A DNA stretch of 63,304 bases, filler included, from Craspedostauros australis (lineage: Eukaryota): NCBI GenBank assembly GCA_030167865.1. It is 13 parts of 13 records of this genome, joined end to end, with 100 filler letters (N's around TTAATTAATTAA, not from the genome) between each part and the next. Parts side by side here need not be neighbours in the genome. Positions count along the whole stretch, not along the records: positions 32,158 to 33,928 come from JALAGF010005523.1; positions 34,029 to 35,766 come from JALAGF010005525.1; positions 35,867 to 38,709 come from JALAGF010005528.1; 10 more parts are not named here. One strand, 5' to 3'. Positions 6,094 through 63,304 of this stretch are shown here, piece after piece. Position 1 is the first letter of the stretch, and every line of letters starts with the position of its first letter. The position numbers and the translations under genes are program-made. A model generated the notes under the pieces. That model did not search any database. It was not told the DNA's origin and saw nothing but the letters and a program-made list of their open reading frames with translations.

Positions 6094-6193
6094 NNNNNNN
6101 NNNNNNNNNNNNNNNNNNNNNNNNNNNNNNNNNNNNNTTAATTAATTAANNNNNNNNNNNNNNNNNNNNNNNNNNNNNNNNNNNNNNNNNNNN

Positions 6194-18961: not shown

Positions 18962-19599
18962 TCGTTGGTTGGGGAGGGTCTTGAGCTGNNNNNNNNNNNN
19001 NNNNNNNNNNNNNNNNNNNNNNNNNNNNNNNNTTAATTAATTAANNNNNNNNNNNNNNNNNNNNNNNNNNNNNNNNNNNNNNNNNNNNAAGTACTACCAT
19101 TGCGTACTTTGCACGATTGGTACATTCTCTATTTGGCATTGTTGTGACACAGCACAACTGCAAAGCCAGAGCAAGAGCAAGAGAGACTGCGATCTATTAT
19201 ATTATATTACATTACATTATATTATATTATATCATGTTTGTGTGGTATGGCAGAGTAGCTCGCGCTAGTATGTACAAGTGCTCCACAACTATCAGTGCTG
19301 CATCAGCAGCAGTGCCATCGCTGAAGGTATGTAGAGATTTCCCATAAATAAGTACTGGCCATCACTTGTGTTCAGGCATGTCTGTCACCATCCCTCCAAA
19401 CTGCCACATCCCCACCACAAGAACTGCACCAGTCTACCTATACCTCCTGACAATCCATATAGGAGTTGATTGTTGCTTGAACCTGCGGCCACAGTGAACC
19501 CTTGTACATGCAAGCCACACAGATGAAGTGGAGCACACCATTGGTCTAATCACAATAACAGCTCAAGGATTATACTCAATTCACATGAGAATGCACCGA

Positions 19600-22318: not shown

Positions 22319-22862
22319 AGAGAGTTATCGCATTGTTTGGATTTCCATCGAGAGAGTCCCGTGAGGGAGTCATGACCTGATAGAGACATTTTCCCGGGGG
22401 GTGGCGAGAAATCACCCCCTCGCTCGATGGAAATTATTTCCATTCGTGCTGCACGAAAGGAAATTATTTCCATCGAGAGAGTGGATCTCCTTCGGGAGAG
22501 TCCCGGAAAAATGTATCATTTCCACATGGAATATAGACTTTGGCCAATCATGTTGCGCCATTTCGTTCTAGTTTAGTCCTTCTTGTCCTCCACATCCATC
22601 TACATTGGCCACCATCGTAGACTTTTGCGTTCGTTTTGGAACAACAAAGAGAAAAACATCATCCATCACATCGCCATCACATCGCCATCACATCACCAGC
22701 GCTCGATTCTCTCATCTCAAGACAATCATCCATCACAACCCACCTCATGACTACACCTCGATGCTCTGCTTGGACCAACATCTTGCACGAGTTATTCTGA
22801 TCACCACCACAGACCACTGCACGTGTGGCTTCTGACACATAGTCTTCTTCCTGATATTCGTC

Positions 22863-24293
22863 ATGGACGGCTCTCCTCCTCCCGCTGATCCATCTATCGC
22901 CCCGTCGGAGACCAACAGCGACAGCGAGGTCACGACGAGTGGAAGGACTGGCGCACCAGCAACCTTTGTCTTTCCACCACCTGTGTTAGCCAAGAACGAG
23001 AAGCTCCCACCTGGCTTTGAACACTGCACTTTCAGGTTCACGCTGGCGCAGCCTCAAGCCAACGTTGGTGCTGCCTTCGACGCGCGCAATGGCGACGACA
23101 CCGATGCGATGGCTGACTCTGGGAAGCCTCGCGCTTCACCATCAGGCACCCATCAGCCTCCGGCGCAACCATCGCCACCAAGCAACAGCAACAGCAACAA
23201 CAGCAACAACAAGAAGCGTGCGTACCGACGCAAGAAGGCGCCTCCACCTTCTTCCGTATCCTCTGTGGTGGCGACAGCGAGCGATGGCAACTTGGAATCC
23301 TCCGCCAGCGATTCTGCCCCGGTCGCCCGCCAATCCAGACGAACATCCTTCCCTCCCATGTACTATGATCTGAAGGGGAAGGTTGACTATTTCCCATGGC
23401 TGGTGAGCCCCCAGCCATGCGACCGAATCCTCATCGACGTCGTCGCCAGGGCTCCAAAAAAGCCATGGATACGTCCATACGGAGTCGCGTGGAGTGCAAT
23501 CTGCCATGCAGTGCATGTTGAGAATTCGACGGTCTTTCCCACCGTCCCAACCAAGAAATCGCTCAAAGGGAGATTCGAAAATCTCATGAGCTTCACAGCT
23601 CAATACAACCATGCCCATCCTCACAGGAGCGGCATGCATGAGAGTATCAAACTGTGGCTGGACGACCTCACCGAAATTCAACGGGATCGCCAGGAGTACA
23701 TTGACGATGCAATCGCATCCTCCCGAGAAACTGTGGGGCGCAAGAGGATTTCCACAAGGCAGGAGCAATGTATGCTTGGACGTCGCCCTCCTCGAATGCA
23801 GTCGCAAGCTGGGGCAGCGAGAACAGCACAGAGACAGAATGCGGCGGCGAGCAACAGCGACGACGCGACCTCAAGTTCGTCTTCTGTGGAGGTGGTAGCT
23901 TCCCCTAAACGAAGCCCCAACGCACAACAGCAAATCCAGCAAACAGTCGGTCTCCTCGAGAAACTGGACGAAACTCAACGCCAGTTTCAAGCATGGCTCT
24001 CCACAGCCATGCCTCCACGCCGTGCAGAACGCACAGAAGATTCTCCGATTGCTGCATCGCTCGCTGCTTCTCCGACCCCTCCAACTGTGGGGACAGCAGC
24101 AGCTTCCAACAACAGCAACAGCGATCTCCTCCAGCTCGTGTTGAATCAGCATCAAATGATGATCAACATGAACCGCCATCTGGAGGAGGATAGGAAACAG
24201 GCGCAGCGCGAGACCTCACAGTTGCGCGAGTCGCAAATGAAGCTCTCGTCTGACGTCAGGTCTCTCGTCGACGCCCTATCTGGACCTCAACGC

Positions 24294-24329
<36 letters not shown>

Positions 24330-24392
24330 GACGACGACGACGACGAAGACAACAGCAGCAGCTGCAATGGCGACGACGGTGCGGGAAAATGA
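22863..24392 (+). CDS. Accessory protein of the PHIS element, putative Myb/SANT-like DNA-binding domain, 509 aa
   Basis: DRILIDVV...PW...AWSAIC...KKSLKGRFENLM resembles trihelix Myb/SANT; low-complexity flanks and a C-terminal coiled coil; lies inside the TIRs. Confidence 0.7.
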
Positions 24393-24822: not shown

Positions 24823-26037
24823 TCATGGGATCAGGTTGATGTATTCTTCGAATGTCAGCTTGTGCGATTGGTACCGTGAAGACTGCTGATTACCATTCAT
24901 GGTGCAATGAATGTTGGCGAGGAACGCAGCAACAAAATTAATGTGTGTGAGAGGATTCAGCAGTGTTTTGTTGGCACTGCGAACGCTGACGAGGGGAAAA
25001 TTTTTCGTGATCTCCTTGAATGCCCACTCAACACAGATGCGTCCCGACGACATGTCCTTGTTGCACTGCGCCTCGGAGGACCCTGGAACAGTGTCCTTGT
25101 ATGCAGCGAATATGTATGGATTAGTAGGATATGCTGCATCACCATAGAGACGATATGGAGGATTGTTCTCATCCAACGGCATGAGAGCCTCCAATCGCTG
25201 TTCGATTTTGCTTTGCTGGAACATGTACCCGTCACTGCGAGCACCCGCAATCGGCCCAAAGTAGTGGATCATCAACCCATCTGGTGCAACGATGCCTTGA
25301 TAGTGCAACCCATGAGCGCGTTTATAGCCAGAGTATAGGCCTTTTTGATTCTCCTTCGGGCGACACGTTTCCCACAACGTGCCGTCGACATAAGCAATCA
25401 CATCGTCCACCAAGCCGTGGGTGAGACGGTGGTTGTTGTTCGCATAGTCAGGGAATCGAGTATGAAACAAACCAATGTCGCTCAGGTACGGCTTGCCAAT
25501 GGCATAGAAGTAGGAGTAGAAAGTGGAGGCAATGCTGGAAATGCGGTTGCTGTCCATGCTGAATTTCTCTTCCATGTCACACAGCCGCCCGCGATGTGCC
25601 AGACGGAACAGCATGACGAGCAATCCCATTTCGTATGATACCGTGTATCGATTCTTCACCTGAATGCATGCAGGATCTAACTCACCAGACACTGCCTGGA
25701 ATTTGGGCCAGAGACGGTCAGCCAGACGTTGGAGATCACACGCACGGAAACGAAAGTGACGAACACTTTCGCGGTCGTCCAGTTCCGCGATGGCAATATT
25801 CCTGTTGGTGAACATGGGAGGAGGTCCCAATGGAGTGAGGTAGAGTTGCTGCATCTGTAGCACATGACGGCCCAATGCGACGATGTTGCTATAGTGCTGA
25901 ATCAAAATGACGACTCCTGCATAATCCAGACGTTGGACGTCGATGTCTGCAAGTTGAACGATGGCAGCCTCAAATCGAGCGCTGGCTTCTTGCAATGCCT
26001 GCCGCTCGGGAACGGTATTCCAGTTACGATTGACCAT
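24823..26037 (-). CDS. DDE transposase, Harbinger/HARBI1 (DDE_Tnp_4) type, 404 aa
   Basis: AYVDGT (D), YSGYKRAHGL, APDGL, LYGDAAYP (D), RICVEWAF (E); N-terminal HFRF and HTH region. Confidence 0.93.
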   Translation of the reverse strand: MVNRNWNTVPERQALQEASARFEAAIVQLADIDVQRLDYAGVVILIQHYSNIVALGRHVLQMQQLYLTPLGPPPMFTNRNIAIAELDDRESVRHFRFRACDLQRLADRLWPKFQAVSGELDPACIQVKNRYTVSYEMGLLVMLFRLAHRGRLCDMEEKFSMDSNRISSIASTFYSYFYAIGKPYLSDIGLFHTRFPDYANNNHRLTHGLVDDVIAYVDGTLWETCRPKENQKGLYSGYKRAHGLHYQGIVAPDGLMIHYFGPIAGARSDGYMFQQSKIEQRLEALMPLDENNPPYRLYGDAAYPTNPYIFAAYKDTVPGSSEAQCNKDMSSGRICVEWAFKEITKNFPLVSVRSANKTLLNPLTHINFVAAFLANIHCTMNGNQQSSRYQSHKLTFEEYINLIP

Positions 26038-26419
26038 GGCAACGATGGTAAGTAATAATCGAACGCGTGGAGGAGCTGCGTGTGCGAAGGTGCGATGAAC
26101 ACAGAAGAATTGAAGGAGCAGCGATTATAGCATGACATGTAGCATGGAGGGAATGCATCATGCAACATCAAAAAAGGAACCGATGATGTGTTGTGACACT
26201 CATGACCAAAATGTGACGCTCTTCGGGAGAAGTGAAAGCGAACATGTCTAAATTAGATACCCTAGAGATGGCGCGAACGGTTATTGACTCCACGTAATCC
26301 AAGCAGTATTCTGTCACGCAACAGTCCTGTGCAGTTTCCGTCACTCGAGACTCCATGTCACATGTGACATGGCGCCTGGGGGCCTCTCGATGGAAATCGC
26401 AACAATGCGATAACTCTCT

Positions 26420-27437: not shown

Positions 27438-28122
27438 TATACGCAAGTGTTGCTGTTGCTGTTGCTGTTGCCGTGAACGTGGACGTGTCAGGAAGCCGCC
27501 ACCAACGCTGCGCTGCTTGACACAACACGCACAAACGTGGAAACACCCAAATGGGCCAAATGACCAACAACGCGAGGAATCAACGCAACACCGAATCTGC
27601 CGCAACATCACCATCCACACCGTTGGATACCATCGCCGTCTGATATCGACCGTCAAAGACGTCATCATTTTCGTCCGCGGTGAAGACAAGCCAGCCAGGT
27701 ATTTATGTCGTAGAAGCTAGCTAAATATATCTAACCCTACTGGACAACACGAAAAATCATGTTCTAAAAATATCATGTTTTACGATGTCAAATCCGCAAG
27801 AACGTACGTGCGAACCCTGAATGGGGTCGTATGAGGATGTGTGATGTGAATTGTATTACAGCGCGCCGCGCGTTGGGGGTGTCAGACACTTGTAAGATTG
27901 AGCGCTCCATGGCTTTCTTGTCCCAGCGACGCTCTCCCAAGCCCGCTGATACTGTCTACCGATGGATGGCGAGATCCTTTCGATACTACGGTTGTGCTGA
28001 AGACCGAATTATGAAGGTGATTTGTCATCATCCGTATGGTGGCTGGCCCAAACCCTTCAAGACTTGGATTTGGTGTGGAACCGGAGGAGGATTGTGCTCG
28101 TGCTCTTACTCCCACAGGGCGC

Positions 28123-30669
28123 TTAGGTGCAGGTGATTGGGCAAGAGCTGCCAGAGGCAATGGTCAAGACAGCAGTGAGAGGCGCGCAGGTGGAAGTCGG
28201 CCCAATACCGTGTTGGCATCGGCTGCATCCCCCTACAGGGGTATCGTTGCACACGCCGTCGGAGAGGGTGATGTCCGCGTTAAAGTCGTAGTCGTAGCCC
28301 AGGTAGTAGCAGGAGTCCTCCGGCACGCAAGTACCATCACCGATAAGTGTGTCTCCCTCGAACTGGTTATAGTTTATGCCGATGTAGGAGTGGTGAGCGT
28401 TGATGTTCGTGCACGAGCGGACGTTGGCACAGGACCCGGCTCCCACAATAGTATTGGACACACGCTTGTTATTGGTGGTGCCGTTGCCCTGGGTGGGTGT
28501 TGTGGTCGCGTAATTTTCTGCTCCAGCACCCATGTCAGCACAGGCTCTATCCATAGCACATGATCCTGCGCCAATAATGGCGTCGCCGTTGGACTGTTGC
28601 GCGAAGGCGTAGCATGCCCTGGTTCCAATGCACGATCCTGGCCCAATGATGGAGGCCTTGTCACTTCCAGAGTTGAAGTTGAAGTGGGAGCATGCATCAA
28701 AACCGGGAGAAGCGCCAGAGAGGCAGGATCCCTGGAAGATCATGGACTGAGTCTCGATGCTTTTGCAGGCCTTGTCCCCAATGCAACTGTTGGATGCGAT
28801 AGACGCGATCCCGGTCCAGGAGCAGGCCGAGGCTATGTTGCAGCACGTGCGCCCTGCCATACCACACCAAGCCATAGCCTCAGGAGCGGTTCCAGTGAAC
28901 ATCTCACCGGTGGTGGCGGCGGCGGCGGCCGCGCTGAAGATATCGAGGACACCGGTCTTTCCGCTGATGGTGTTGAAGAGAGCGACGCCGTCAGCAATGG
29001 TTGCCTGGTTTTCGAAGATCCTGAGGAGATCAGCTTCATTCTGGATAGTGGAGAGAAGGGTCCTTCCCTCTGCTGTGTCTGGTGTTCCGAGGGCAAACAG
29101 GAATGTCAAGGGAGTTGGAGCAGAAGTTGGAGCTGTGGGTGCTGATGTTGGAGCAGAAGTTGGAGCTGCTGTTGGACCAGTGGGGGCTGATGTGGGAGGT
29201 GACGTGGCAGGTGTTGGGAAAGGGGTGGGGGAAAAGGTTGGACAGTCTGTGGGCAAGGTGTCCTTGCCAATGCAATACTCATCCACTCTGTCACCAGTGG
29301 GATTCATGTTGCTGTCGCTGCCTCCCTTTGGACAGGCCCCATCAACATCGCTGATGATGTAGACTTCGTCGGAGTTGCACTCCGTCTTCGTCATGCATCC
29401 TCTGCAGCCTTCGACACTGCCGCATCCACCAGGAGGGACGACGAGGTCGGTTGTCATCCTGTCATTGAATCCCATCTTCTCGCATGACCCATCGGCGGCG
29501 CAACCACCAGCACCAATGGTGAGGCTGCCTGCATACTTGCCTGCAGTACCATGGTTGACAGTGGAATGGGCATCCTTGCAGGCATTGCTGCCAACACACG
29601 CATTCTCACCGATGTCGATGTGGCTGCGGATGCGGGTGGAGGCCTTCTGCACGACGCGGCGTCCAGCTGCATTGCATGCCTCTGATCCAATACATGCACC
29701 GGTCTGGATGGTGACATCACCATGAGAGCGGCGTCCCACTCCCTCACAAGATTGAGGGGTGGTGCATGACATCTCACCGACGAAGGTGACTCCTGTGATG
29801 GACGGGTTGATTTCATTTTCGTTCATCAACTCGCATGCACTCGCGCCTGTGCAGGAGGAATCAAGGACGAGGGGATTGGGACCCATATCCTTGCAGGCGC
29901 TGTCACCAGTGCAGGCAGTGATGGCGATGGTCATGAATGGAGGAGAGTTGGAGGCGGAACCGGTGACTGAGGTGCATCCTGAGGATCCTTGGCAGCATGG
30001 ATCTGCGACGGCAGGCGATTGCATCGCAGCGATGTCCGTGCATGCTGTGCTCATTTCATCTGGTCGTTCGGTGATGAGGAGCGGCTTGGTGGCAGCAACC
30101 AGGGTCAATTGGCCAGCAAGGATATCGCTGGATGCGTACTTGTTGAAGAGCTTGCGAGCGGCTCCTTCGCCAAGGTCTCCTGCGCATCCGAAGAAGTTTT
30201 GCAGTTGCTCGGATTCCTTGACGGCCCTGATGGCTTCGCGGCAGGATTGCTTGGCAGAGTTACAGATGATGGTTTTGGCGCTTTGCTCTTCTGTTGTGAG
30301 GGCGGTATTGCCATCTGGCTTGCAGACAACGGAGATGGTGGAATCGAAGACGGTTGGGGCAGCTGATGGTTTGGCAGTTGGCAGGAGGGTGGGCTGGGAG
30401 GTCGGCGAGGTAGTCAGCGACCCAGTAGGCAATGCGGTTGGCGGGGTCGTTTCTGGATCAGTTGGGTTTTCAGTGGGTGGCACTTGATTGTTCTTGTTGC
30501 TCTTGTTGGTGTCACCGCCGGCGCCCTTGAGGATGCGGGTCTTCATCATCATCATGTGGAGTTTCTCGGTTGGATCCACAGGAATCCTGTTGCCGCGGAG
30601 CACGGCGTCGACCGTTGCCGTGTCGGCGAGAGCGAGAAAGGTCGCGAAGGCTGTCTTGGTGTAGATCAT
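28123..30669 (-). CDS. Secreted Cys-rich repeat protein with Pro/Thr-rich linkers, 848 aa, probably cell-surface or adhesive
   Basis: Signal peptide MIYTKTAFATFLALA; PTxxPT tracts; many IGxGxCxGxxAC repeats in two blocks; RIL/RKL/RTL motifs; uninterrupted ORF. Confidence 0.85.
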   Translation of the reverse strand: MIYTKTAFATFLALADTATVDAVLRGNRIPVDPTEKLHMMMMKTRILKGAGGDTNKSNKNNQVPPTENPTDPETTPPTALPTGSLTTSPTSQPTLLPTAKPSAAPTVFDSTISVVCKPDGNTALTTEEQSAKTIICNSAKQSCREAIRAVKESEQLQNFFGCAGDLGEGAARKLFNKYASSDILAGQLTLVAATKPLLITERPDEMSTACTDIAAMQSPAVADPCCQGSSGCTSVTGSASNSPPFMTIAITACTGDSACKDMGPNPLVLDSSCTGASACELMNENEINPSITGVTFVGEMSCTTPQSCEGVGRRSHGDVTIQTGACIGSEACNAAGRRVVQKASTRIRSHIDIGENACVGSNACKDAHSTVNHGTAGKYAGSLTIGAGGCAADGSCEKMGFNDRMTTDLVVPPGGCGSVEGCRGCMTKTECNSDEVYIISDVDGACPKGGSDSNMNPTGDRVDEYCIGKDTLPTDCPTFSPTPFPTPATSPPTSAPTGPTAAPTSAPTSAPTAPTSAPTPLTFLFALGTPDTAEGRTLLSTIQNEADLLRIFENQATIADGVALFNTISGKTGVLDIFSAAAAAATTGEMFTGTAPEAMAWCGMAGRTCCNIASACSWTGIASIASNSCIGDKACKSIETQSMIFQGSCLSGASPGFDACSHFNFNSGSDKASIIGPGSCIGTRACYAFAQQSNGDAIIGAGSCAMDRACADMGAGAENYATTTPTQGNGTTNNKRVSNTIVGAGSCANVRSCTNINAHHSYIGINYNQFEGDTLIGDGTCVPEDSCYYLGYDYDFNADITLSDGVCNDTPVGGCSRCQHGIGPTSTCAPLTAVLTIASGSSCPITCT

Positions 30670-31169
30670 GGTTGCTCGGTACTTGGTGGTTGGTGATTGA
30701 TCGTTCGGGGTTGATAGTTGTTTGCTTGGTGTTGTCAGTTGACAACTTGGATGGATTTATGAGATGAAGAGTTTGATTGCTGCTTGTTTGGGCCATTTTG
30801 TGTGCGTCTTCGATGTTGTGCATGAGGCAACATGGTACGAGGATGGCATGACGCCAAGGAGGCCAAAGCTCCGCCACAACCAGAACCTTCACAACTGGTG
30901 ACATCACCGTTGGATAGAAAGACTCCGTGGATCGATGCCGATGACCAACACTTATGGTGCAGCATGACCCTCCCCAACGTCCATCACATGTTGGGCCTGA
31001 ACTATTTGACGTCCGAGCAAAGCGCATGCAAGCATGGTGGGACAAGTAGACATGGAACATGCCGCCCTTGCTCAACTCCACATGCCATCATCTGTCGTCC
31101 TTCTTGATCCGCTGTTCTCGTCTGTACCAGGACAGGACTTTGTCGCAGTCTGGTTTCCACAAGGGCACT

Positions 31170-32426: not shown

Positions 32427-33928
32427 CTATTCTGTGGAGGACTCGGCGTTCTTCTCGCCACTTCTCAGAAACGATTTGAAGAAGGAGGCTTGGATCGACA
32501 CTCTCTGCTCCCAATCATATTTCATTACCCTTTCCATCAACCATTCAAACACAGCATACGACGTGATCCTGTCGGTCCTGTCTTTGCTTTCTTGGATTAC
32601 CTCGCACGCAGCTTTTCGGACCTTTTCAGATAGCTGTGGTGTCTTCTTCTTCTTTGTGGGCGACATCATCCTGATTTTTTGTTCGGATGCCCACAATGGT
32701 TTGGATTCCGAAGAGGACGACGCATTGGGATGTGTCACGGTTGATTTGGCAGGTGGCTTCGATGACAATTTCACAGTTGGCGATGCTGATCCAGATGATG
32801 CCGCCGATGATGACNNNNNNNNNNNNNNNNNNNNNNNNNNNNNNNNNNNNNNNNNNNNNNNNNNCTCGGCGTTCTTCTCGCCACTTCTCAGAAACGATTT
32901 GAAGAAGGAGGCTTGGATCGACACTCTCTGCTCCCAATCATATTTCATTACCCTTTCCATCAACCATTCAAACACAGCATACGACGTGATCCTGTCGGTC
33001 CTGTCTTTGCTTTCTTGGATTACCTCGCACGCAGCTTTTCGGACCTTTTCAGATAGCTGTGGNGTCTTCTTCTTCTTNGTGGGNGACATCATCCTGATTT
33101 TTTGTTCGGATGCCCACAATGGTTTGGATTCCGAAGAGGACGACGCATTGGGNTGTGTCACGGTTGATTTGGCAGGTGGCTTCGATGACAATTTCACAGT
33201 TGGCGATGCTGATCCAGATGATGCCGCCGATGATGACGCCAATGATGACGATGAATTTGCAGTTGCTTTCCTGGATGCTGTTGTCGTGGATGCTTTTGTA
33301 CTTGCCTTTTTGGTGTACGTGATTGCCCAACCCGACTCGACAAAGTCAGGAGCCTCGACCTTCTGCTCAACTGTGACGGTGTTGGCTTCGTCGCCAGGGC
33401 GTGGCTGTGAGATGAAATCGAAGACCCAATTTGTGACGAGATCGCGGAGAACGGCACTTTTTGGAGTATCAGGCTTGCCGCGAGCGCGTGACGTGCGTGT
33501 TGTGTATGTTGGCGGAGACTTGGCTTCGCCTGGCGTCTTCACAAAGGCAGGCTCGATCTCTTTGATTTCGTCGCTTTCGAAGTGTATTTGCAGATCTTGG
33601 ATGTCGTAGCTGTCCAGCTTTTCTTGATCGATGATCTCTGGCTCGGTGACACCAGAGGATGCTGTGAGTACAGCGCTGTCATCGCGAAAGTCCACCTGAT
33701 GCACATCTCGGCAGGGAATCTCTTCTGTTCGAAATGGCTTGTTTTCGAGTCCATCGGATTGCATGACAGTGGTGCCCTTCAACTTGCCGGCATGTGCAAG
33801 CACGGTGATCGTCCCCTTGATTTTGTGCTTTACGAGGTTGGTGAAGATACCTTTCTCTGTCAACCCCTTTGCGCCCTTTGTGCGGTTGATGGCTCGTCTC
33901 AGAACGTTGCCCACGATACCAAAGTGGC
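32427..33928 (-). CDS. C-terminal part of a Sola3-like transposase (divergent member)
   Basis: IKGTITVL...RDVHQVDF...ASSGVTEP aligns with IAGTTTVL...RQTHEVKF...AASGVTDD (35867 contig); GWA motif; 32442-32814 duplicated across a gap. Confidence 0.6.
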
Positions 33929-34028
33929 NNNNNNNNNNNNNNNNNNNNNNNNNNNNNNNNNNNNNNNNNNNNTTAATTAATTAANNNNNNNNNNNNNNNN
34001 NNNNNNNNNNNNNNNNNNNNNNNNNNNN

Positions 34029-35766
34029 AAGCAGTGACATTCCCTTCTTCCCCCAATATTCTTGTTGGGCTTCGCTTTGGCCTGTCGGTAGAATTTTTTG
34101 CTTATGGTCAAGTACCACATAGGCTCTTTCAGGCTTATCATTGAGTTCGGATTGATAAAANGCGATTTGTCGGAATTGAACTTTTGCACGCACTTTGTGA
34201 GCCATGTANTTAANNATTTCNTNGGNGAATCCNGGCGCCGCNGCAAGCATGGATTGNAATTCGTCNTTGTGTTCTNNGAGTTCGTTGTCCTTAAGCATTG
34301 TGACAAAAGGAACAAAACGATCATTCACAAATCGCATTGCTGATCCACAACGGTTGCATACTTTACGCGGTTGTTCGCTTGTTGTGACCACTGGAATGTC
34401 ATTTGTGATGGTTGGCATGTCGCTTTTGGGAGTGGTCTTCTTGCGCTTGTGCTTGTTGGTGCGTGGTTTGCGTTGATTGGTTGATGTGGTTGGTGCCTTC
34501 TTCTTCTCCTTTTTGGTGGTGAGAGCGAACNNNNNNNNNNNNNNNNNNNNNNNNNNNNNNNNNNNNNNNNNNNNNNNNNNNNNNNNNNNNNNNNNNNNNN
34601 NNNNNNNNNNNNNNNNNNNNNNNNNNNNNNNNNNNNNNNNNNNNNNNNNNNNNNNNNNNNNNNNNNNNNNNNNNNNNNNNNNNNNNNNNNNNNNGTCATT
34701 GGCATCGTTTTGTTCCTCCTCGTCTGCTTCATACTTAGCCTTCAGGAGGTCTACTAGGCGCGAAATTGCCTGTTTGAGTTTCTCCGTCGCCATCCAGAAG
34801 TAGCTCTCGAAGGAAGAAAGGCCGGTCTTGATCTTACTTTTGCGTGTGAGCAGGTTAGTCATGAGGGTGAATGCAGGCATTCCAACTGGGTTGTTAGTCG
34901 TTGACGCGNNNNNNNNNNNNNNNNNNNNNNNNNNNNNNNNNNNNNNNNNNNNNNNNNNATGGTCAAGTACCACATAGGCTCTTTCAGGCTTATCATTGAG
35001 TTCGGATTGATAAAAAGCGATTTGTCGGAATTGAACTTTTGCACGCACTTTGTGAGCCATGTAATTAATGATTTCATCGGAGAATCCTGGCGCCGCTGCA
35101 AGCATGGATTGCAATTCGTCATTGTGTTCTTTGAGTTCGTTGTCCTTAAGCATTGTGACAAAAGGAACAAAACGATCATTCACAAATCGCATTGCTGATC
35201 CACAACGGTTGCATACTTTACGNGGTTGTTCGNTTGTNGTGNNNNNNGGAATGTCANTTGTGATGGTTGGNNTGTCGNTTNTGATAGNAGTNNTCTTCTT
35301 GCNCTTGNGCTTGTTGGTGCGTGGTTTGCGTTGATTGGTTGATGTGGTTGGTGCCTTCTTCTTCTCCTTTTTGGTGGTGAGAGCGAACGCGGCCGAATGC
35401 ATTGGATCGTCACACTGAAGCTGCATGTGAGAGGCGGTGAATTCCCATTTGAGGAACACAACAAGCAGTTCGAGTGCATGCAAGAGAGAATCGGCTGTGC
35501 GCACATGTGGTGCGATGACGTCATCTGGCTCGTCATTGTCGCTGTCGCTCTCGTCATTGGCATCGTTTTGTTCCTCCTCGTCTGCTTCATACTTAGCCTT
35601 CAGGAGGTCTACTAGGCGCGAAATTGCCTGTTTGAGTTTCTCCGTCGCCATCCAGAAGTAGCTCTCGAAGGAAGAAAGGCCGGTCTTGATCTTACTTTTG
35701 CGTGTGAGCAGGTTAGTCATGAGGGTGAATGCAGGCATTCCAACTGGGTTGTTAGTCGTTGACGCG
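34029..35766 (-). CDS. Central part of a Sola3-like transposase (two overlapping contig copies)
   Basis: KTGLSSF, HMQLQCDDPMH...CNRC, YMAHKVR, YVVLDHKQKILP...EYWGKKGMSLL. Confidence 0.7.
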
Positions 35767-35866
35767 NNNNNNNNNNNNNNNNNNNNNNNNNNNNNNNNNN
35801 NNNNNNNNNNTTAATTAATTAANNNNNNNNNNNNNNNNNNNNNNNNNNNNNNNNNNNNNNNNNNNN

Positions 35867-38709
35867 TCAGTGCGTCGCGAAAGACGAGCGCTTTGCTCTC
35901 CACCGCGGTAGCACCCCACTTTCGCGTCTTTTTCTTCTTCTTTGGCGATTCGGCGGTGAACGGTTCCGTTCCTGACGTGTGCGTTGCGATGGTGCGGAAG
36001 CCCAGCGGGTTAATTTCCCAGTCTTCCCATTCGGCACACGGGACAAGAACGTCGTCTGTGACACCGGATGCCGCCACCAAATTGGCCTCGTCGTTTCCGA
36101 ACTTCACCTCGTGCGTTTGGCGTACCTTTTGGCCTTTCGCGCAGAAACGCTTCTTCGGCATGCCAGGGAAACTCACAACGCGCCCCTCGAGGCATTCTGC
36201 ATCCACCAAAACCGTGGTTGTTCCTGCAATGTTGCCAGCTTCCAATGCGTCAAAAAGTTGGTGTTCCGTCTTGATGTCGTTGTCCTCCAGCACGTAGGAT
36301 CGCAGTACAACAGTGATGTACGCAAAGTGCGTGTCAAGGCGGCCTTTTCCGGTTTGGGCTTCGGTGTAGATCCAGGCCGCGATCTTGGGGACATTTCGCN
36401 TTCCAAGGTTCTTGTTNAGCACNGANGTGATCAGNGGGATGTGCTCNTGGCTCGCNAAACAANACGCGTTNTCGGANTGGATGACNATTTCNGTGACNGA
36501 TGGAAGNANTTTTCTCACCTGTTGTTGCACAATTTCGAGAAGCCCGCCAACTTGGAGGGTGTCTTGAGTTGGCCTCCCCTTCACAATGATATCGATGAAG
36601 CGATAAGTGAATGTGCCATTGTGACATGTGATCACCATCGCACCCAACAGAGACATGCCCTTCTTGCCCCAGTATTCTTGTTGAGCTTCGCCCTGGCCAG
36701 NNNNNNNNNNNNNNNNNNNNNNNNNNNNNNNNNNNNNNNNNNNNNNNNNNGTTCTTGTTCAGCACTGATGTGATCAGTGGGATGTGCTCATGGCTCGCGA
36801 AACAAGACGCGTTATCGGATTGGATGACAATTTCAGTGACCGATGGAAGAATTTTTCTCACCTGTTGTTGCACAATTTCGAGAAGCCCGCCAACTTGGAG
36901 GGTGTCTTGAGTTGGCCTCCCCTTCACAATGATATCGATGAAGCGATAAGTGAATGTGTCATTGTGACATGTGATCACCATCGCACCCAACAGAGACATG
37001 CCCTTCTTGCCCCAGTATTCTTGTTGNNNNNNNNNNNNNNNNNNNNNNNNNNNNNNNNNNNNNNNNNNNNNNNNNNNNNNNNNNNNNNNNNNNNNNTTGT
37101 TGATATTTTTGAGGTACTGCTCAATTTGTCCGAATTGAACCTTGCTGCGCACTTTGTGTGCCATGTACCACAGTATTTCGTTGTTGAACCCCGGTGCGGC
37201 ATTGATCATTGACTCCAATTCTGTCGCGTGTTCTGCAAGATGATCCTCCATAAGCAACGTGACGAAAGGGACATATCGGTCATCCACAAAACGCATCACC
37301 CCTGCACAACGGTTACATACTCCAGTGTGCTGTTTGTCTGTGGGGGCGCAAGGCTGTTCGTTGTTGGCAGTGGTGGTGTCATTGGCAGCAGTATCTGTCA
37401 CAAAAGTGATGTCTGGAATATCAATTGTGATGGCTGGGGTGTCATTGGTGGCAGAAGCAATGTCGCTTGTTCGAGTGCTCTTCTTCCTGAGCTTGTGCTT
37501 GTTTGTACGTGTTCTGGTTGATTGGGATTGTTTCGTCGTTGTCTTCTTCTTCTGGTTGGGCGTGAGCGCGAATTGAGCCGAGTGCAGTGGGTCATCACAC
37601 TCCATCTGCATGTGTGATGCTGTGAATTCCCATTTGACGAAGACAACAAGAAGTTCCAATGAGTACAAAAGAGACTTGGCTGTGCGCAGATGCCGGGAAA
37701 TCACNTCATTCTCGTCCTCAGCGCCGTTTGTTGTGGGATACTTAGCCTTCAAAAGTGTGACNAGGCGCGAGATCGTGCGTTTGAGAGTNAGCATNGCCAG
37801 CAAGAAGTGGCTTTCGAAGGAAGACAGCCCTGTGTTCACTTTGCCACGTCGTGTTAGTAGCTGCGTCATCTCTTTGAATGCTGGTTCGCCCACTGGGTTA
37901 GTAGTCGTCGTCTTGTACATGTCGAATAGCGCCATGATGCTTTTTCCTCCACGATCGAAGACAGGAACGTTGTCGAATACGACTCCTTCCCACTCCACTG
38001 CGTGGCACAAGCCAGCCTTGTACGTGGTCGTAGTGCAGAGAAACGACACCACACCAGACAAAGCACATGCAGTCACACGGTATTGAAGAACTTTGGGAGG
38101 AATGGTTTCCCCATCGCTCAACATGTCATGGTACCGATGCAATGTGTTATGTTGGCTTTTAGTGATGGTTTGTCGATTGCTATGTACACGCACGCGTTCT
38201 TCCTCCGGCAATCCATTGACGTATCCAGTGAGAATGTCTGTGCATGTTGTTGGAGACGCAGACTGCGCGAGAACGGCTCTCGCGCAGAGGTGCATGAGCT
38301 TGCTCCCTCCAACACATATGCGGTACAGATTTGGTGCAAGTGTCGTTGGTGGCAGTGGCTGACCAGCTCGGACAAATTGCACCACCTCATGCATCTGGCA
38401 AGTCGGTGTTGGTTGCTTTGGGAGCAACACATCCCAGAGCGCAGAAGCAATTGGTGCCCACAGCCGTTTGATGTTGCTCCAGACTTGCCGATCGTGTTTT
38501 CCGCCGAGTACGAAGCCCGTCTTCGGCATAGAGTCGAACACTTTTGGAGATAGGCCCGACTTGACCAACCCCGCGACGCCGGCCAACGCATCGCGACGCC
38601 ATCCTCTCACCGTTTTCTTGATGATTCTGTTGCGGCCTGTTCGCTTCTTCCTGCGATCACGGCCATCCACGTAGTCGTCGTCGCTGTCAACATCAACTTG
38701 CTCGGAAGC
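35867..38709 (-). CDS. Nearly complete Sola3-like DDD transposase (composite of ORFs 36334-38670 and 35811-36656, gap-duplicated)
   Basis: EYWGKKGMSLLG, QSDNASCF, YTEAQTGKGRLDTHF match the pattern FGKRG.S / SDNAGCY / EPQ.GKG.CD that I associate with Sola3. Confidence 0.72.
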
Positions 38710-41977: not shown

Positions 41978-42706
41978 TGAAACATACAAATCAGCTGTTT
42001 AACCTCACCCGAACGATGGGGATCATCCAAGAGATGGATGATTGGTTGGATTCCCTGGTGGAACCGTAGGAANNNNNNNNNNNNNNNNNNNNNNNNNNNN
42101 NNNNNNNNNNNNNNNNNNNNNNTGGGGATCATCCAAGAGATGGATGATTGGTTGGATTCCCTGGTGGAACCGTAGGAATAAACAATAACCACATGCAAGA
42201 AACTACAATGCTTTAGAATAGCAACAACAACAAGCACTGTTCAATCTATTTGTCACTGTAATTGCTGGAAACAAACTGCAGTTGGCTGCACCAACCGAGA
42301 ACGTATCCCAGGACGAACCAAGGTGATAATCAGCAATTCAATACAGGACAGGCACCAAACACTGCACTTACTCCTCCGCCAGGGTGATCAATCCGTCAGG
42401 TGAAGCCGGTGTGTTTGGTGATAGTTGTTGCTAAGTTATGGTTGTATCAATTGATGATTGTGTTTGGATAATGAGATGATGATCTCCTATTTCTAATGAT
42501 GGTGCCTATTGCACGGTTGCTAACGTGCTGCTTGATTACCTCGTGTTGTATCTCGCAGTCTTTCCTAAAACATTGCCCAAGATGGCATGTTGATTTACAC
42601 GATATCNNNNNNNNNNNNNNNNNNNNNNNNNNNNNNNNNNNNNNNNNNNNTTAATTAATTAANNNNNNNNNNNNNNNNNNNNNNNNNNNNNNNNNNNNNN
42701 NNNNNN

Positions 42707-45291
42707 GTCGATCACAAGAAGCCAGTATTTGCCCCTTCCCAGGCTGTGTGTCTGAACACTCGATGTATCCATGAACAATCGATCCCCGACTCCTTTCGCT
42801 CGTTGTTGAGTCGCTTTCGACATCGGTCTCTGCCGCGATTTCCCAATCGCGCAGTCAACACACACGTTCAGTTTTCCTGTCACGTTCCAGCCGTACCTCC
42901 CTGCTGTTCGAGAGATGGTGTACGCGTCAACGTGACCTAACTTTTTATGAATTGTGTTGATGTCGACTGGTGCNNNNNNNNNNNNNCCAACATGAGCTTG
43001 GTCGTCGGCCTTGGCGTTGCTCACCATGTTCACTCCGCACACGAAACCGCTCTGGGTTGCCATGATGCGGTCGAAGCTGATGCGCACGCTGCCTTTCTTC
43101 AGGTTCATCACGATGCCGCGGTTGCTAATATCGAAACCATTCTCGAGAGCTTTGTTAATGCTCAGTAAGTTCACCCACAGCTTCGGCACGTACTTCACTG
43201 ACTTGAGCACAACGATGGATGTCTTTCCATGCTTCTGCATGACGGTCATGCGCTTGTCCCCGACCTTGGTTGCCTTGAGGAAGCGTCCGCTTCCGATCTT
43301 CACGTCCTGATCGGAGACGCGAACGTTGGTCATTCCTTCGTCGCTGTTGGTGAGGTGGCATGATGCGCCCGAATCCCCCAACCAGGTGTTGGTCTCGTAG
43401 TTGTCCGGTGCGACGGAGGTGCGCCTTGCGCTGACGTTGTCAGTGTTGCCGACCATCATGGCTATCTCGTGTTGGTCTGTGCGTTCAGAGTAGATTGGTA
43501 GCACCCAGTGCTCCGGCTTTGGGAGTCTGACTCCGCAGTCACTTTGGTGATGGGTCCAACTGATGGAGTTCGCGGCATGATGGGTCATGCGCGTAATCAG
43601 ATCGCTGGGGAGGGGGTCGAAGCGGCGAGACTCCAAACTGTTGTTGATGTTGCACGGGTTGCGACACACACTCAATGTGGTGATCATCCCGATCTCGTGT
43701 AGCTTGAAGTACACCGTGCGCGCCTCGATCAGTGGAATGCGATCCCCACTGTGAGTAGCTACAGCGTCGTAGCACAACAGGGCGAGTTCGTTTCGCACCT
43801 CATTGGCTTGGAGAACGTTGCTCAACGATGCTCGCACTGCATTGCGGAGGGAGCCAGCTCTTTCGAGTCTGGTGCGTCGCTCCGCGCGCTCTTCATCGTT
43901 GGTCGGCACATGGCCACTCGGCTCATTGTGGAGCTGGATGAAGAAAGGAACTTGGGGGCGTTCCACGCACCATGCGTAGAGTGGTCCTCTCTTGAGGCAC
44001 AAAGGGCACCAAGCCGTGTTGGTGATGAGCCCTGTCGAGTTCCCGATCATTCGGTCCACACGAGAGAGCTCTGGGGCGAAGTTGAAGATAGGGCGACGTG
44101 CCGCTTCTTCTCGGTTGGCATCGCCCATGTCGTCATCCACGTCTTCGGTGTCGGTGGCCCCTTCGTTGGTGAGGCTTGCGTCGTAGTAGGATTCTTGTCC
44201 TTGGTTGGAGTTGCTCATCTTGTTGTTGACGTTGTGTGGTCTCAAGGAAACAATGGGAGATGTGTCAGTCTGTTCGACGATGGCTGCAAAGGCGACGTCC
44301 TCCATTACGTTGGAGTCGGATTGATTGTTGCTTCCGATGTCGCGTGTTTTCGCCTCGCCTGTGTTCACAGATAAGTTGGTCACATTTTCCAATTCGTTCG
44401 TGTTTCCCAAGGTGGGCACACAAATTAACTCATCTGTCATCATAAGAGCCACGTCGTTATTTCCCTCCATCCCATCAGTCGCCACATTAGCCGAGTCTGC
44501 CTCTTTCATGGCTGCCTTCAGCTTGAAGCACTGTAGGATCTTGTGTCCCTTCTTACCGCAGTACTTANNNNNNNNNNNNNNNNNNNNNNNNNNNNNNNNN
44601 NNNNNNNNNNNNNNNNNNNNNNNNNNNNNNNNNNCTTTCTTGGGGGCGGAGCGGCAGTCTGCCTTCTTGTGGCCGTAGGCGCCACAGTTGCGGCAGTGAC
44701 CTTTGAAGCCTCCTACTGCAGCGAATGCAGTCTCTTCCTTGTTACTGTTGCTTTCACCTCTGTTGCCGCCGAGCTTGAGGTGTCGGCCGTCGTAGGTGGC
44801 ACTGACAGCCTCGCGGATGTCCTCGAGGGTCATGGTATCTTCCATACCGTCGAACTTGAGCTCCAAGAGCTTGACGTCCGTCTCGTATTCCCTTCCGAGG
44901 GCGTTGAGTACGAGCATGTGGTACTGTTGCATATCCATCTTGATGCCGGTACTACCGAGGCGATTACGCAGCACTTCCATCTCAGTTAGGAACGTGTCTG
45001 GGTGCTCACCTTTCTTCAACCGCATTCCATTGAGTTGAGCCAGCAACTTTGCCTTGATAGGCGCGGTACGTTGCTCGTAGATGCGCTCAAGGGCCTTCCA
45101 CGCCTTGCGTGGGTCTCCACTCTCAGTGGGCCCGCCCTTGGTTCCCACCACAGCCATGAAGGCGACATTGCCTTCCGTAGTTTCATGGTTGATCGCCATG
45201 GCCAGTTCTTCAAACGTGCACTTAGCCAGCCCATTCTTGTATGCCTCCTTCTCCTCAGCGATCATCAAGGCTATCTTCTTTGCGATAGACT
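42707..45291 (-). mobile_element. Ty1/copia gag-pol fragment in a single frame (ORF 42659-45268), related to 6194-9172
   Basis: Copia Gag (AWKAL...PDTFLTEME.LR), CRNCGAYGHKKADC, WLGDSGASCHLT, HKKLGH...CVDCAIGK, LFMDTSS. Confidence 0.93.
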
Positions 45292-45951
45292 CGAATGATT
45301 CTGGCCTGCTTGCGTGCTCAGGACCCGAAGTGAAGCACTCTCAGGCACACAGATGACAGTCTTCTATTGCTTATCTGTTGTTGGTGTATTGCTGATACAC
45401 TCCTTGTTGNNNNNNNNNNNNNNNNNNNNNNNNNNNNNNNNNNNNNNNNNNNNNNNNNNGTCAAACCCCAACCAGGTGAAGATCTGGGTCAGTGTGATCG
45501 CCATGCTGTGTGGTGGTCAGCCGGTACTGCCGCTGCTGGACACTCTCACTTGGATGATCAATCCGTGAGTCCGTTGAGCTCCCAAGTGACCTGACTTCTG
45601 CGAGCCGTCGCTCCTGCCGTCACTGGTTCCAAATNNNNNNNNNNNNNNNNNNNNNNNNNNNNNNNNNNNNNNNNNNNNNNNNNNNNNNNNNNNNNNNNNN
45701 NNNNNNNNNNNNNNNNNNNNNNNNNNNNNNNNNNNNNNNNNNNNNTGTTGGTGTATTGCTGATACACTCCTTGTTGTGAACCAGATTGTGACCGCATGCC
45801 ATGAATCCAACAAAGACACATGCTCTGTTCGTTTTTTTCCCTTTGTGTTGTTTCAGCCACAAACACTCCGCCTCGGTTGCTTATGACTGTACGGTCACAG
45901 AATCATTGACCAATACGAGCTACGCGACTCGTTTGACCCTATAACTTGCTC
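45292..45951 (-). repeat. Rearranged pieces of the leader and gag start of the element at 49998-50997
   Basis: Near-identical to parts of 50478-50997; ends gaccct.aaacttgctc-like in both. Confidence 0.85.
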
Positions 45952-47224: not shown

Positions 47225-48351
47225 TCTACACAGAAGCCCAAACAGGCAAAGGGCGAATCGACACTCACTTTGCCTACATCACTATCGTACTACGATCCTA
47301 CGTACAAAGCGGCGGCAAAATTCAAACCGAACGCGAAATCTTCGACGCGATGCGAATGGGAAATATCAGAGGTACTACCACTGTCTTGGTTGATGCATCA
47401 GGTTTGGAAGGTCGCTGTGTGACGCACAAGACAAATGCACGCATCAGGTTCCGCGCGAAGGGCATGACTGTACGATCAACGCACGAGGTGCAACACGGAA
47501 ACGGCTACGCAGACTTGCTTGTGGCATCAAATGTCACTGATCCAGTGCGTGTGGAAGAAGCGGAATGGGAAGACTATGACATCATGAATTTCGAGGTTCC
47601 CATCATCAACGAACACCAATCGACGCAACAACCACTCACAGCAATATCACCGCGGAAGCAGAAAAAGACCCTCAGGTTCGCGAAGAGTGCCACCGAAAGC
47701 AAGGCGCTGACGTACCTCGAAGCGATCAACATGGCAGCCTTGGAGACGCCTGACATAAGTAGTGTGCTGCAGGACACCACAGCAGCAACAGAACACCCAC
47801 GATTGGCTGAGCCTGGTTGGGCTGCGAAAGCCCTGCGACGCAACGAGCCCATTCGCCCATACCTGGTGGAAGTGTTGGAGGAGGTGTGCAGAGTGGCACG
47901 CGCGGACCCGAAGAACAGACCAACCGAGTACGAGGCATACAGGCGGTGCATGCAGACGACCGAAATGAAGACTGACTGGTATGCACGGGTGCACGTGAAC
48001 CCAATGCGAGTGAAGCAGTACATGTCCGCGTCCTACCAACGCACGAAACCGAAGGCCGCGAACACTAGTACCCCGGAAACCACGATCAACAAAAACGCGA
48101 CAAACAAAACAATCACCCCACCACCGACGAACGCGAACAGCACCCACACAGAGATCGTGCCTGCACAGCACACAACAGCAGATGAGGAGGAAATCGCGCT
48201 GCAACAAGAAGAAAACGAAGCATCGGAGCAAATTGTGTGCGAGACACAAACAATGAAGGAGAATACGGAATCTCCGGAGTTGGTGGAACAAAATGTGAGG
48301 ACACAATTGCTTCAGCGAGTCAGAACCGCAATGGAGGGACTAAAAAAATAG
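47225..48351 (+). CDS. C-terminal part of a Sola3-like transposase
   Basis: YTEAQTGKGRIDTHFAYITIVLRSYV, IRGTTTVLVDA, ESKAL, PGWAAK, KTDWY...NPMRVK; open to the stop at 48351. Confidence 0.72.
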
Positions 48352-53794: not shown

Positions 53795-54789
53795 GTCTTC
53801 CGGGTAACTCGCGGGGTCACTTCCGAAGTTGCTGCTGGAGGGGAACGGCACCCGCGATTTTTGAACTTGGTCGAACTCGTCAGCCAGCGAGTCGACCTGC
53901 GCTTTATTTTTGACCTCCAGAAATTTTATCCCGTACATCCAAACCAAGTGCATATTCGTAATCCTCGTAGTCTCTTCATACAAAGCCCTAACATTTTTTA
54001 GTTTCATCTGTTTTTAAGTTTTATGGATATTCAAAGAAATTCTGAAGTCATATGGGTCGAACCCCACCAAATTCCTAGTTGTTTCGCTGAAGTTCTATGA
54101 TGTTCGCGTAAATTCATCGAAAGGTACCCCGAAGATGTCGTTCGTTTGGTACGGGATGAGCACAAGAACGAGTTCCGAGATCATACGGGTCGGAACGTCT
54201 GTCAGTCGACCGTTGCGGTCATCTGGTCTTGTGCAATGACTCCTACGTGCCAACGGTGTAGCGGTTACGTCCGTGAGCATGTGTCAGCAACAGAATCCTC
54301 TCAGAGCAGGAGAGAACACACAATTTCGAGGACCGCAGCTCGAAGCAGCAGCAACAACAACAACAGTTGGAAATCCGGGGTACCCCAGTCTCTAGTAGTA
54401 GTATCTGGTTACCTATTCATGTTATTGCATTGTTGGAACTGTGAGTACAACATCTTCATCACTTTCAATTCCATTTGCCAAAGCATACATATTCCACAGT
54501 AGCACACAGTCTTGCCCTTGCTCATGCAGTGCTGTCCTCCTGCTTCATCATGTCATGCAGCATGCACTCCATGTACATCTCATCTTGCAGTATTGGTTCA
54601 TCTCATCATGCATCTCATCATGCATCTCAGATATTCCATCCCCTGCCATCTACCAATAGTTTTGTTAGCATAGACATTGCCGAGTCGTAGGCGTCACACA
54701 GCTTGGTCCATTCGATCGGATCAGGGTCTCCCATTCGTCACAGGAGCACCCTGGATGGGGCTCTCTCAGCTCCTCATCGTCACACATCT

Positions 54790-58952: not shown

Positions 58953-59804
58953 CAGCCACTCCTTGGATTTACATGCCATGCGTTTTGAAGCTTTTATTTT
59001 ACATGCCATGTAACTTCAACAGTCCCGCCAAATGAGAACTCCACGCGGAAGTAACGTGAATTGACAATTTGTTACCCAATCATAGTCGTACACTTCTGCT
59101 CTATTCGCATCTTCATCGTTCTTGAGTTTGCCTTGTTTCTTTTTTAGATTTGCGTCGATGCGAACGGTTCGACCCAATTTTCGTGGTCGAAAGGATTGTG
59201 TTTCTCCGCGCGTCCTTCGTTGCGTCTGTTGGTACGGCTGCCACAAAATCGCGGGCAGATGGCGCGAAAACGAACAAAACAACAACAAGCCGGTTGCGAC
59301 GTCTTCTCTGCCCATGTTCAGCCTGAACATCCAATCGCATCCTTCGTGCACACATACGATGGTATCCGCAGCGCGAACTGTTCATGTGCAATTGTAATCC
59401 ATCGTCGTCATCCTCATCATCCTCGCCGCCATGCCTGTGAACGTCCGGTTCATGCTTTCCAAGATGCACGGAGGAGGGCACGCGCATTCCTCCAACCAGT
59501 CCATGGTACTCCCCATCGTCACTAGCAGCAGCATCCGCGCGCAACACGCCAACTTATTCTCTTGATGGCCATGGTCACGGCCACCACTATTGCCACCACT
59601 GCCATCAACATCGTCACAACATCGGCTGCTTGTGCAATCGATGGCTGGCGGAATGCAAAAATTATGCGCGGATTTGACGCTGGAATCCTCTGTCCTTTGC
59701 TGTCCATGAAATGATCATCATCCCTGTTGCAACACAAAATGACAGCCTGCGCCGATCAAGTGCGGATTGAAACACGCGCGCCCCTCTTTGCATACCATCA
59801 TCAT

Positions 59805-62230: not shown

Positions 62231-63304
62231 CCTTCAGTGTGTCAGCATCACACCACATCTGATGATCCAGCTCCTCCTCCTCTCTCTGCAACTCCTTCTC
62301 TCTTCGTTCCTCCTGTGTTTCAGCTGGCGCATCGTAGGTCGCCACAATTGCAGATGCTGTTGCTTTGCTTGTTGGGTTGGTGTTGGTGTCGGTGTTGGCT
62401 TCCGCCTTGATGAGAGCGGCCTCCTTCTTGTCCTTGCGTTGTTTGGCGTTGTACGCTGCAGACAGCGACGCTTTCACGCGCATGGGNNNNNNNNNNNNNN
62501 NNNNNNNNNNNNNNNNNNNNNNNNNNNNNNNNNNNNNNNNNNNNNNNNNNNNNNNNNNNNNNNNNNNNNNNNNNNNNNNNNNNNNNNNNNNNNCTTCACT
62601 GATGTCCTTCAACTTGTCCGCGATGTAGTCTGGTAGTTCCGCTGGTTTGCGCGTTGTTTTGCTCGCCCAGCCTGGCACTGCGAGTGGAGGGTGTTCGGTT
62701 TCAGCGGTCTGGTCTTGTAGCGCTGTGGTGTGATCGGATGGTAGATGTTGTTGTCCGTCCGCGATGGCTTTGCCGAACGCCAGCCCCTTGCTCTCTGCCG
62801 CTGTGCGCCCGAGTTTTCGCGTCTTGTCCGTCTTCCTGAACGATNNNNNNNNNNNNNNNNNNNNNNNNNNNNNNNNNNNNNNNNNNNNNNNNNNCAGCTG
62901 GCGCATAGTGGGTCGCCACGATTGCAGATGCTGTTGCTTTGCTTGTTGGGTTGGTGTTGGTGTTGGTGTTGGTGTTGGCTTCCGCCTTGATGAGAGCAGC
63001 CTCCTTCTTGCCCTTGCGTTGTTTGGCATTGTACGCTGCAGACAGCGACGCTTTCACGCGCATGGGATTTGCGTGCAGTTGTACGTACCAGTCAGTTTTG
63101 GTTCTTTNNNNNNNNNNNNNNNNNNNNNNNNNNNNNNNNNNNNNNNNNNNNNNNNNNNNNNNNNNNNNNNNNNCTTCACTGATGTCCTTCAACTTGTCCG
63201 CGATGTAGTCTGGTAGTTCCGCTGGTTTGCGCGTTGTTTTGCTCGCCCAGCCTGGCACTGCGAGTGGAGGGTGTTCGGTTTCGGCGGTCTGGTCTTGTAG
63301 CGCT
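62231..63304 (-). CDS. C-terminal fragments of a Sola3-like transposase (overlapping contig copies)
   Basis: AAESKGL, LQDQTAETEHPPLAVPGWASK, KTDWYVQLHANPMRVK align with 47225-48351. Confidence 0.65.

Follow-up and report, generated by a model that had tools for sequence, protein, structure and literature searches.

The window, the whole 63,304-nucleotide stretch analysed here, consists of joined scaffolds of the diatom Craspedostauros australis with an N44-TTAATTAATTAA-N44 spacer between them, and holds stop-free pieces of a single protein family on five of these scaffolds. The pieces, noticed in a preliminary description of this DNA and re-found by us through translation, sort into four subfamilies: A (35867-38709, minus strand), B (34029-35766 and 62232-63303, both minus), C (47227-48351, plus) and D (32427-33926, minus). 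That description spoke of five contigs, and the pieces do lie at those five places, but the ones it listed at 47225 and 62231 follow N gaps inside scaffolds and mark no contig start. We conclude that the pieces very probably belong to an autonomous cut-and-paste DNA transposon family of Sola3 type, within the Sola superfamily, that comprises at least six subfamilies in this diatom. The family makes a 4-bp target duplication of the form NTAN, has the anatomy of a complete element, is matched by empty sites and has evolved under purifying selection, and its transposase is modelled with an integrase-like core around Asp702, Asp786 and Asp832.

Assembly shaped what the window displays. In four of the five scaffolds a stretch recurs on the other side of an N gap, 92-100% identical, which marks these repeats as collapsed copies or alleles, not tandem genes. 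The subfamily D piece is assembled twice in this manner (the versions are 99% identical), the subfamily B piece at 34029..35766 consists of two overlapping copies that are 92-100% identical, and the first Asp of the subfamily A piece at 36751..38709 falls in the gap. The reference for subfamily D is a 1,436-codon open frame on G000:C6028 that carries all three catalytic motifs, and the subfamily B piece at 62232..63303 reaches 85-93% amino acid identity to P0041 over shorter stretches. A 277-aa piece used as query found 145 matches in the 65.9-Mb genome, a lower bound that counts matches and not copies, alleles possibly having been assembled apart.

Element anatomy and the NTAN target site

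The complete element L031 (G000:C66) is 4,566 bp long, is bounded by terminal inverted repeats (TIRs) of ~158 bp that agree at 153 of 158 positions (97%), contains one intronless 1,210-aa open reading frame (ORF; P0037), and is flanked by ATAC on both sides. Other two-ended intact elements are L041 (4,602 bp, CTAT/CTAT), L049 (6,023 bp, TTAA/TTAA) and L181 (4,718 bp, TTAT/TTAT). The transposases of the family, each in a single intronless ORF, measure 1,050-1,400 aa across elements; the earlier estimate was probably over 1000 aa. Passages of the literature describe Sola1-3 as subgroups of one superfamily (PMC4455052) with a DDD transposase, a 4-bp target site duplication (TSD), a length of mostly 2-9 kb and TIRs of 11-1124 bp (PMC10741241); the intact elements, at 4.6-6.0 kb with TIRs of ~158 bp, lie within both ranges.

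The ends of the elements define the target. We collected 109 TIR ends for subfamilies A-C, 95 of which start with GA; among these GA-selected ends 53 read GAC and 42 GAG, and their flanks carry T at position -3 in 94 cases and A at -2 in 92, with -4 and -1 variable. A search with the subfamily D end sequence gave 40 scored matches out of 137 candidates, and the 20 D ends begin with GAC (13) or GGC (7) and have TA in 18 flanks. For comparison, the frequency of TA across the window is 2.9%. A TTAA flank occurs at just 7 of the 95 A-C ends and 1 of the 20 D ends, and the rule here is NTAN; the subfamily C TIR in the window, with ACAA as its outer flank, is among the few without TA. More than 100 ends sit in unrelated flanks.

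Both flanking 4-mers agree exactly in 4/7 two-ended copies (L031, L041, L049 and L181), and since two unrelated NTAN flanks would agree by chance about once in ten, this is unlikely to be accidental (~0.002 by hand calculation). Empty sites with a single 4-mer were found for two of the four elements tested, at one locus for L031 and at nine for L049 (TTAA in eight, one with a substitution), and settle the duplication length at 4 bp. A TSD of TA alone, 2 bp long, was rejected because four bases are seen to be duplicated at these sites. A Tc1/mariner-like identity, with only TA duplicated (2 bp) and one extra variable base counted in the ends, is accordingly very improbable for the family. In its favour, TA is nearly invariant beside the ends, and structural matches to the transposase include Mos1 and Sleeping Beauty. 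Against it, the direct repeats extend to the outer bases (ATAC, CTAT, TTAT), which are not inverted, and at the empty sites exactly four bases are missing in addition to the element, which largely refutes that reading. Pfam, searched with six pieces from the window, gave no match at cut-off, Tc1/mariner models included.

Purifying selection on the transposase is strong. Median dN/dS over the core was 0.12 within subfamily A (120 pairs), 0.24 within B (66 pairs) and 0.22 within C (6 pairs), and 0.13 between A and B (190 pairs) and 0.14 between A and C, values that indicate a transposase constrained throughout the expansion. Such constraint would also be expected of a domesticated host multigene family, and the duplicated stretches within the window scaffolds are indeed artefacts of assembly; a host family or an assembly artefact is nevertheless hardly credible as an account of the whole, given the TIRs, the TSDs, the unrelated flanks at >100 ends, the deletion derivatives and the copies with stops, and it is refuted by the insertion polymorphisms seen as empty sites. 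The near-identical TIRs and the empty sites suggest fairly recent movement, and judged from these sequences the transposon family has apparently been mobile until recently.

Several observations weigh against the reading as a cut-and-paste family of Sola3 type. The TSD does not match in 3/7 two-ended copies, namely L188 (TTAT/TTAA, on an N-gapped scaffold) and L128 and L122, which are 1.4-kb deletion derivatives, and the scoring left out six copies with one damaged end (L034, L037, L042, L044, L182 and L183). The empty site of L031 reads ACAC rather than ATAC, with flanks 95% identical; for L041 none was found among the loci examined; and the comparison for L181 was limited to loci already collected. 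No excision footprint or transposition event was observed, and no left end could be located for subfamily D. Within subfamilies the median dS is ~0.3 and the minimum 0.05, so that most sampled copies are not brand new. For subfamilies E and F (L045, L046, L175-L179) no TIR pair was found in the stretches examined, the ends lying outside them or the contigs being too short. Coverage from one sequencing run fell on flanks and on TIR pieces of other copies only and is uninformative on expression.

Some copies have unusual ends. In L138 (G000:C1644) and L124 (G000:C6087) the ends of different subfamilies abut across one 4-mer (CTAT and TTAT, respectively), as if one copy had entered another's target duplication. 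In the subfamily C copy L042, the right end is replaced by a short palindrome (L042:7714-7747), possibly a scar of hairpin repair.

Transposase motifs and the predicted catalytic core

The putative triad proposed in the preliminary description is present, with D702 in DHKQK, D786 in SDNASC and D832 in GKGRLDTHF of P0037; all three motifs occur together in this protein, and in no single window piece. The three Asp are found in 102-103 of 103 aligned rows, 80 of which had been pre-filtered for the first and third motifs. The proposed H-C-H...CxxC cluster needs amendment: H520, H530, C619 and C622 are conserved (in 79, 84, 95 and 90 of the 103 rows), but the middle Cys is not, and relatives carry a Cys directly after H530 in 84/103 rows where the copy in this genome has Ser. 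The basic insert said to split this cluster is real (P0037 548-608) and is disordered in the structural model described below (pLDDT<50), in which the C-terminal GWA and helical domain folds with confidence. Members do diverge strongly, as had been described, full-length representatives of the six subfamilies being 27-57% identical over the best BLASTP segment. Subfamily A has a ~60-aa lineage-specific basic insert ahead of CxxC, and subfamily D a ~165-aa basic insert between the second and third Asp, within the catalytic core, on a scaffold with a short N gap.

Beyond the transposase the subfamilies differ in size. Elements of subfamily D (L170/L230/L231; G000:C6028, C6487 and C1714) are apparently much larger than those of A-C, with a variable minisatellite upstream and >2 kb downstream. 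Subfamily B has ~1.8 kb of additional 3' sequence (L049:1303-3155; window 61174-62104) that is 73-88% conserved; a second, cargo ORF in this region was rejected, as indels break the frames in 10/10 copies aligned to L049.

We modelled P0037 270-1105 (836 residues) with AlphaFold2 from the 103-sequence alignment (pLDDT 87, pTM 0.80). In the model, residues ~680-960 follow the order of an RNase H fold: three strands are succeeded by a helix and a fourth strand, then by helices, another strand and another helix. D702 lies at the end of strand 1, D786 at the end of strand 4, and D832 at the start of the last helix of the core. A wide structural search ranked integrase and mariner structures at the top (HIV integrase, Z 10.3, rmsd 3.3, 140 aligned residues; Mos1, Z 9.7; IstA, Z 8.9), and with the core alone SIV integrase reached Z 10.2 (rmsd 2.9 over 136 aligned residues), while Foldseek gave 25 matches at E<=0.001. 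Foldseek with the 836-residue model returned no match at that threshold, and helical-bundle matches to the region N-terminal of the core were generic. An RNase H-like fold, proposed in the preliminary description as a check by structure prediction, is thus predicted, with integrase and mariner matches at Z~10.

The modelled core shares its fold with retroviral integrases and Tc1/mariner enzymes (HIV and SIV integrase, Mos1, Sleeping Beauty and IstA; Z 8.4-10.3), and subfamilies A-C, like these enzymes, have no insertion domain between the second and third acid. It differs from them in a sequence identity of only 8-16%, in belonging to a much larger protein and in a 4-bp NTAN duplication in place of TA. 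By analogy with integrase and mariner enzymes, the transposase would bind the TIRs, the three Asp would hold two metal ions for DDD catalysis, and excision of the element would be followed by transfer of its 3' ends to staggered positions, 4 nt apart, in a TA-centred target; host repair of that stagger would yield the 4-bp duplication. The mechanism is most likely ordinary cut-and-paste, and it is not new. Zinc binding is a probable role for the His/Cys cluster ahead of the core. The invariant Glu823 probably serves as a further acid, either the fourth of the active site or a structural one.

Relationship to Sola3 and relatives in other organisms

In the published Sola3 hidden Markov model (HMM), RNase_H_Sola3 (PMC5751038), the first Asp stands in DWAQKVLP and is followed by Trp, Phe or Tyr; EKQSDYFGKKG comes next, SDNAGCYHS holds the second Asp, and FSEAQNGK closes the profile. 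Compared by eye and not with HMMER, against a profile that ends before the third Asp and with about positions 43-68 left out, P0037 agrees at 14 of 27 consensus letters around the first Asp, without a gap, and at 6 of 9 around the second, retains the strong columns E-A-Q-G-K where the profile closes, and matches it in a spacing of 84 positions from the first Asp to the second. The shared pattern reads DxxQKxLP...ExQxxYxGKKG, SDNAxC and EAQxGK. That the comparison was made by eye and covered the Sola3 profile, to the exclusion of Sola1, Sola2 and Zator, counts against the placement. With its motifs in register, the family nests in or beside the described group, and its novelty is weaker than first proposed: the His-type motif states are distinct, but DHKQKILP differs from DWAQKVLP mainly at one strong position, from Trp to His. 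The proposed relationship to Sola3, as a DNA transposon, is upheld by the TIRs, the 4-bp TSD, the empty sites, the DDD core and the HMM register.

A profile search of 1.84 billion representatives reached 4,399 clusters at E<=0.001; at E<=1e-30 there were 510, defined at 50% identity. Homologues with a named organism include a transcriptome protein of the diatom Dactyliosolen fragilissimus and proteins of Hydra vulgaris (P0221), the bdelloid rotifers Adineta steineri (P0209) and Rotaria socialis (P0210), and Pompholyxophrys (P0167); none of the close homologues bears a transposase name. The Hydra, rotifer and Pompholyxophrys proteins are homologous from the His/Cys cluster through the GWA end, the Hydra and rotifer alignments scoring 121-145 bits against <=2.1 for shuffled or reversed controls. 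We treat these proteins as Sola3 because their motifs fit the published consensus, although their sources give no such name; in P0209, P0221 and P0167 the first Asp is followed by Trp or Phe and a C2H2 finger is present, unlike in the diatom family. A search aimed at named Sola3 proteins gave 4 matches only, and the ESM Atlas returned hypothetical proteins without an informative name (best score 0.90). A metagenome scan yielded 19 loci, including a whole element, L152 (TTAA/GAC...GTC/TTAA), and L149, with one end reading TTAA/GAG; among five loci examined for TIRs, a clear pair enclosing an element was present in L152 only, and repeats at L150 and L153 were not assigned to elements of the family. 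Viral contigs gave 47 pattern matches, of which 0 were confirmed.

The diatom family shares with Sola the 4-bp TSD, element size and TIR length, with Sola3 ends that start G-A, and with the Sola3-like Hydra and rotifer homologues the GWA helical C-terminus. It differs from Sola3 in His rather than an aromatic residue after the first Asp, Leu rather than His ending that motif, L-D-T-H-F at the third Asp, and the lack of a C2H2 finger downstream of the core. Further differences are a Ser that, in this genome, takes the place of a Cys of the His/Cys cluster, basic inserts specific to the A and D lineages, ends in GAC as well as GAG, and an NTAN target. The target duplication of Sola3 is reportedly TTAA, and its termini are said to be 5'-GAG...CTC-3'.

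Such differences could mean that the family is a separate Sola subgroup ("Sola4"), sister to Sola3 and not a branch within it. His follows the first Asp in 82/103 rows and stands two positions after the third in 99/103, where the Sola3 profile has Trp, Phe or Tyr after the first Asp; among the best 150 clusters, 144 of them new, the latter His recurs in 94 of the 98 whose third motif is readable. Beyond the core, a C2H2 finger was found in 5/89 rows only, four of them animal or nucleariid, P0037 is 24% identical to the rotifer protein P0209 over 375 aa, and the 510 clusters and the NTAN target would suit a group of its own. We consider this subgroup unlikely, in view of the gap-free register and equal Asp spacing with the Sola3 profile, the extended homology to Hydra and rotifer proteins, the intermediate first-Asp motifs DWKMK, DYKMK and DFAHK (P0157, P0167 and P0182), and the TTAA flanks of L149 and L152. 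A quick unrooted tree of 91 rows (3/94 dropped for lacking a motif, subfamily D not included, three animal proxies) grouped the six rows from this genome with support of 98 but did not separate the three animal rows, which formed a long branch, from the His-type rows around them, and hence does not establish a separate subgroup. The Sola3-type family to which the four subfamilies in the window belong, with its distinct motif states and relaxed target, is part of a large protist clade without a name.

It is somewhat unlikely that this is an ordinary Sola3 family already catalogued, with diatom entries bearing such features in Repbase or Dfam. Sola is among the 12 DNA transposon superfamilies listed for the diatom Cyclotella cryptica, with no subgroup visible in the part of that source available (PMC7466962), and Sola3 is reported in passages on the oomycete Phytophthora sojae (PMC11139960); a table for Ectocarpus, from a source available in part, has Sola-1 and Sola-2 but no Sola-3 (PMC12477816). 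Against this stand the close homologues without a transposase name and a literature search, with Repbase, Dfam and most subscription papers outside it, that in the passages available gave no account of a diatom Sola3, an NTAN target or the motifs of this family. The lineage is not described in passages of PMC3985635, PMC10294476, PMC12973397, PMC5199201, PMC8634313, PMC9297572 and 10.1101/2023.11.06.565293, nor in passages and section 6 of 10.1101/2021.09.26.461848, whose supplements may list stramenopile Sola3, and the searchable part of the Majorek 2014 supplement has no Sola3 entry.

Other features of the window and significance

The coordinates of the family's pieces are collected in Table 1 together with other features of the window, several of them recognised by eye. 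The lone subfamily D right end was absent from the preliminary description. Genome-wide, the silicon transporter family, whose presence marks the genome as that of a diatom, looks expanded, with 92 matches (best 825 bits), eight of which cover >=500/513 profile positions, a number that allele splitting may inflate.

Table 1. Pieces of the Sola3-type family and other features, in window positions
Positions	Strand	Feature	Comparison or basis
32427..33926	-	subfamily D transposase, C-terminal third from just past the third Asp, including stop	91-92% aa to 1,436-codon open frame on G000:C6028
32165..32426	-	non-coding sequence 3' of the subfamily D transposase	94% nt to C6028 downstream of ORF
34029..35766	-	central part of subfamily B transposase; contains the His/Cys cluster and LDHKQK (first Asp)	80-83% aa to L033 and L049 ORFs
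36751..38709	-	subfamily A transposase, corresponding to P0037 aa ~157-807; includes SDNASC (second Asp)	88% aa to P0037
35868..36698	-	subfamily A transposase, second copy, aa 711-987, EAQTGKGRLDTHF (third Asp)	91% aa to P0037
47227..48351	+	subfamily C transposase, third Asp through stop	89% aa to P0040
48467..48625	+	right TIR of the subfamily C copy, ends ...GGGTC	98% to TIR of complete element L041
62232..63303	-	two overlapping copies of the C-terminal part of subfamily B transposase, with GWA and helical end	64-68% aa to L049 ORF
61174..62104	-	subfamily B 3' internal non-coding region	73% nt to L049:2147-3079
27498..27828	+	lone subfamily D right end, ...GGGGTC then GTAT	87-88% nt to D right end
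53876..54027	+	degenerate subfamily B-type TIR remnant, tip lost	73-77% nt to L049 TIR
107-3747, 6146-9220, 42659-45340		gag-pol fragments, Copia-like	by eye
14434-19036	-	DIRS/Ngaro retrotransposon-like arrangement of RT/RNase H-like and tyrosine-recombinase-like ORFs that overlap	by eye
22836-24392 / 24823-26124	+ / -	tail-to-tail DDE transposase and partner ORF, PIF/Harbinger-like	by eye
28123-30756	-	877-codon Cys/Ser/Thr-rich ORF with signal-peptide-like start, just outside the lone D right end	
52472-53794	+	ORF with two apparent globin domains, Ser-rich linker between	by eye
59662-60726		15-bp tandem repeat, several frames open (DDGVA-type repeats)	

Our findings extend Sola3-type elements to diatoms, with curated ends and a curated target site. 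Since Sola transposases have no Pfam model, according to passages of PMC5751038, and the pieces gave no Pfam match, annotations of diatoms and metagenomes carry the family as "hypothetical protein". It is abundant all the same: matches in this genome number at least 145, and clusters elsewhere run into the thousands. A sequence search of the PDB with the core profile gave 0 matches; with no solved structure related by sequence found, the confident model is a starting point. The complete intronless element supplied here is directly testable, and the TTAA-flanked and NTAN-flanked relatives offer a natural contrast for the study of target choice. A further-reaching reading, which we hold tentatively and think improbable, is that the His-type proteins are a large and unrecognised fourth Sola subgroup, common among diatoms and further aquatic protists (at least 510 clusters at 50% identity), the target of which relaxed in this lineage from TTAA to a TA-centred 4-mer, and that copies like L031 are still competent. 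If so, they may provide a native system for insertional mutagenesis and gene delivery in diatoms.

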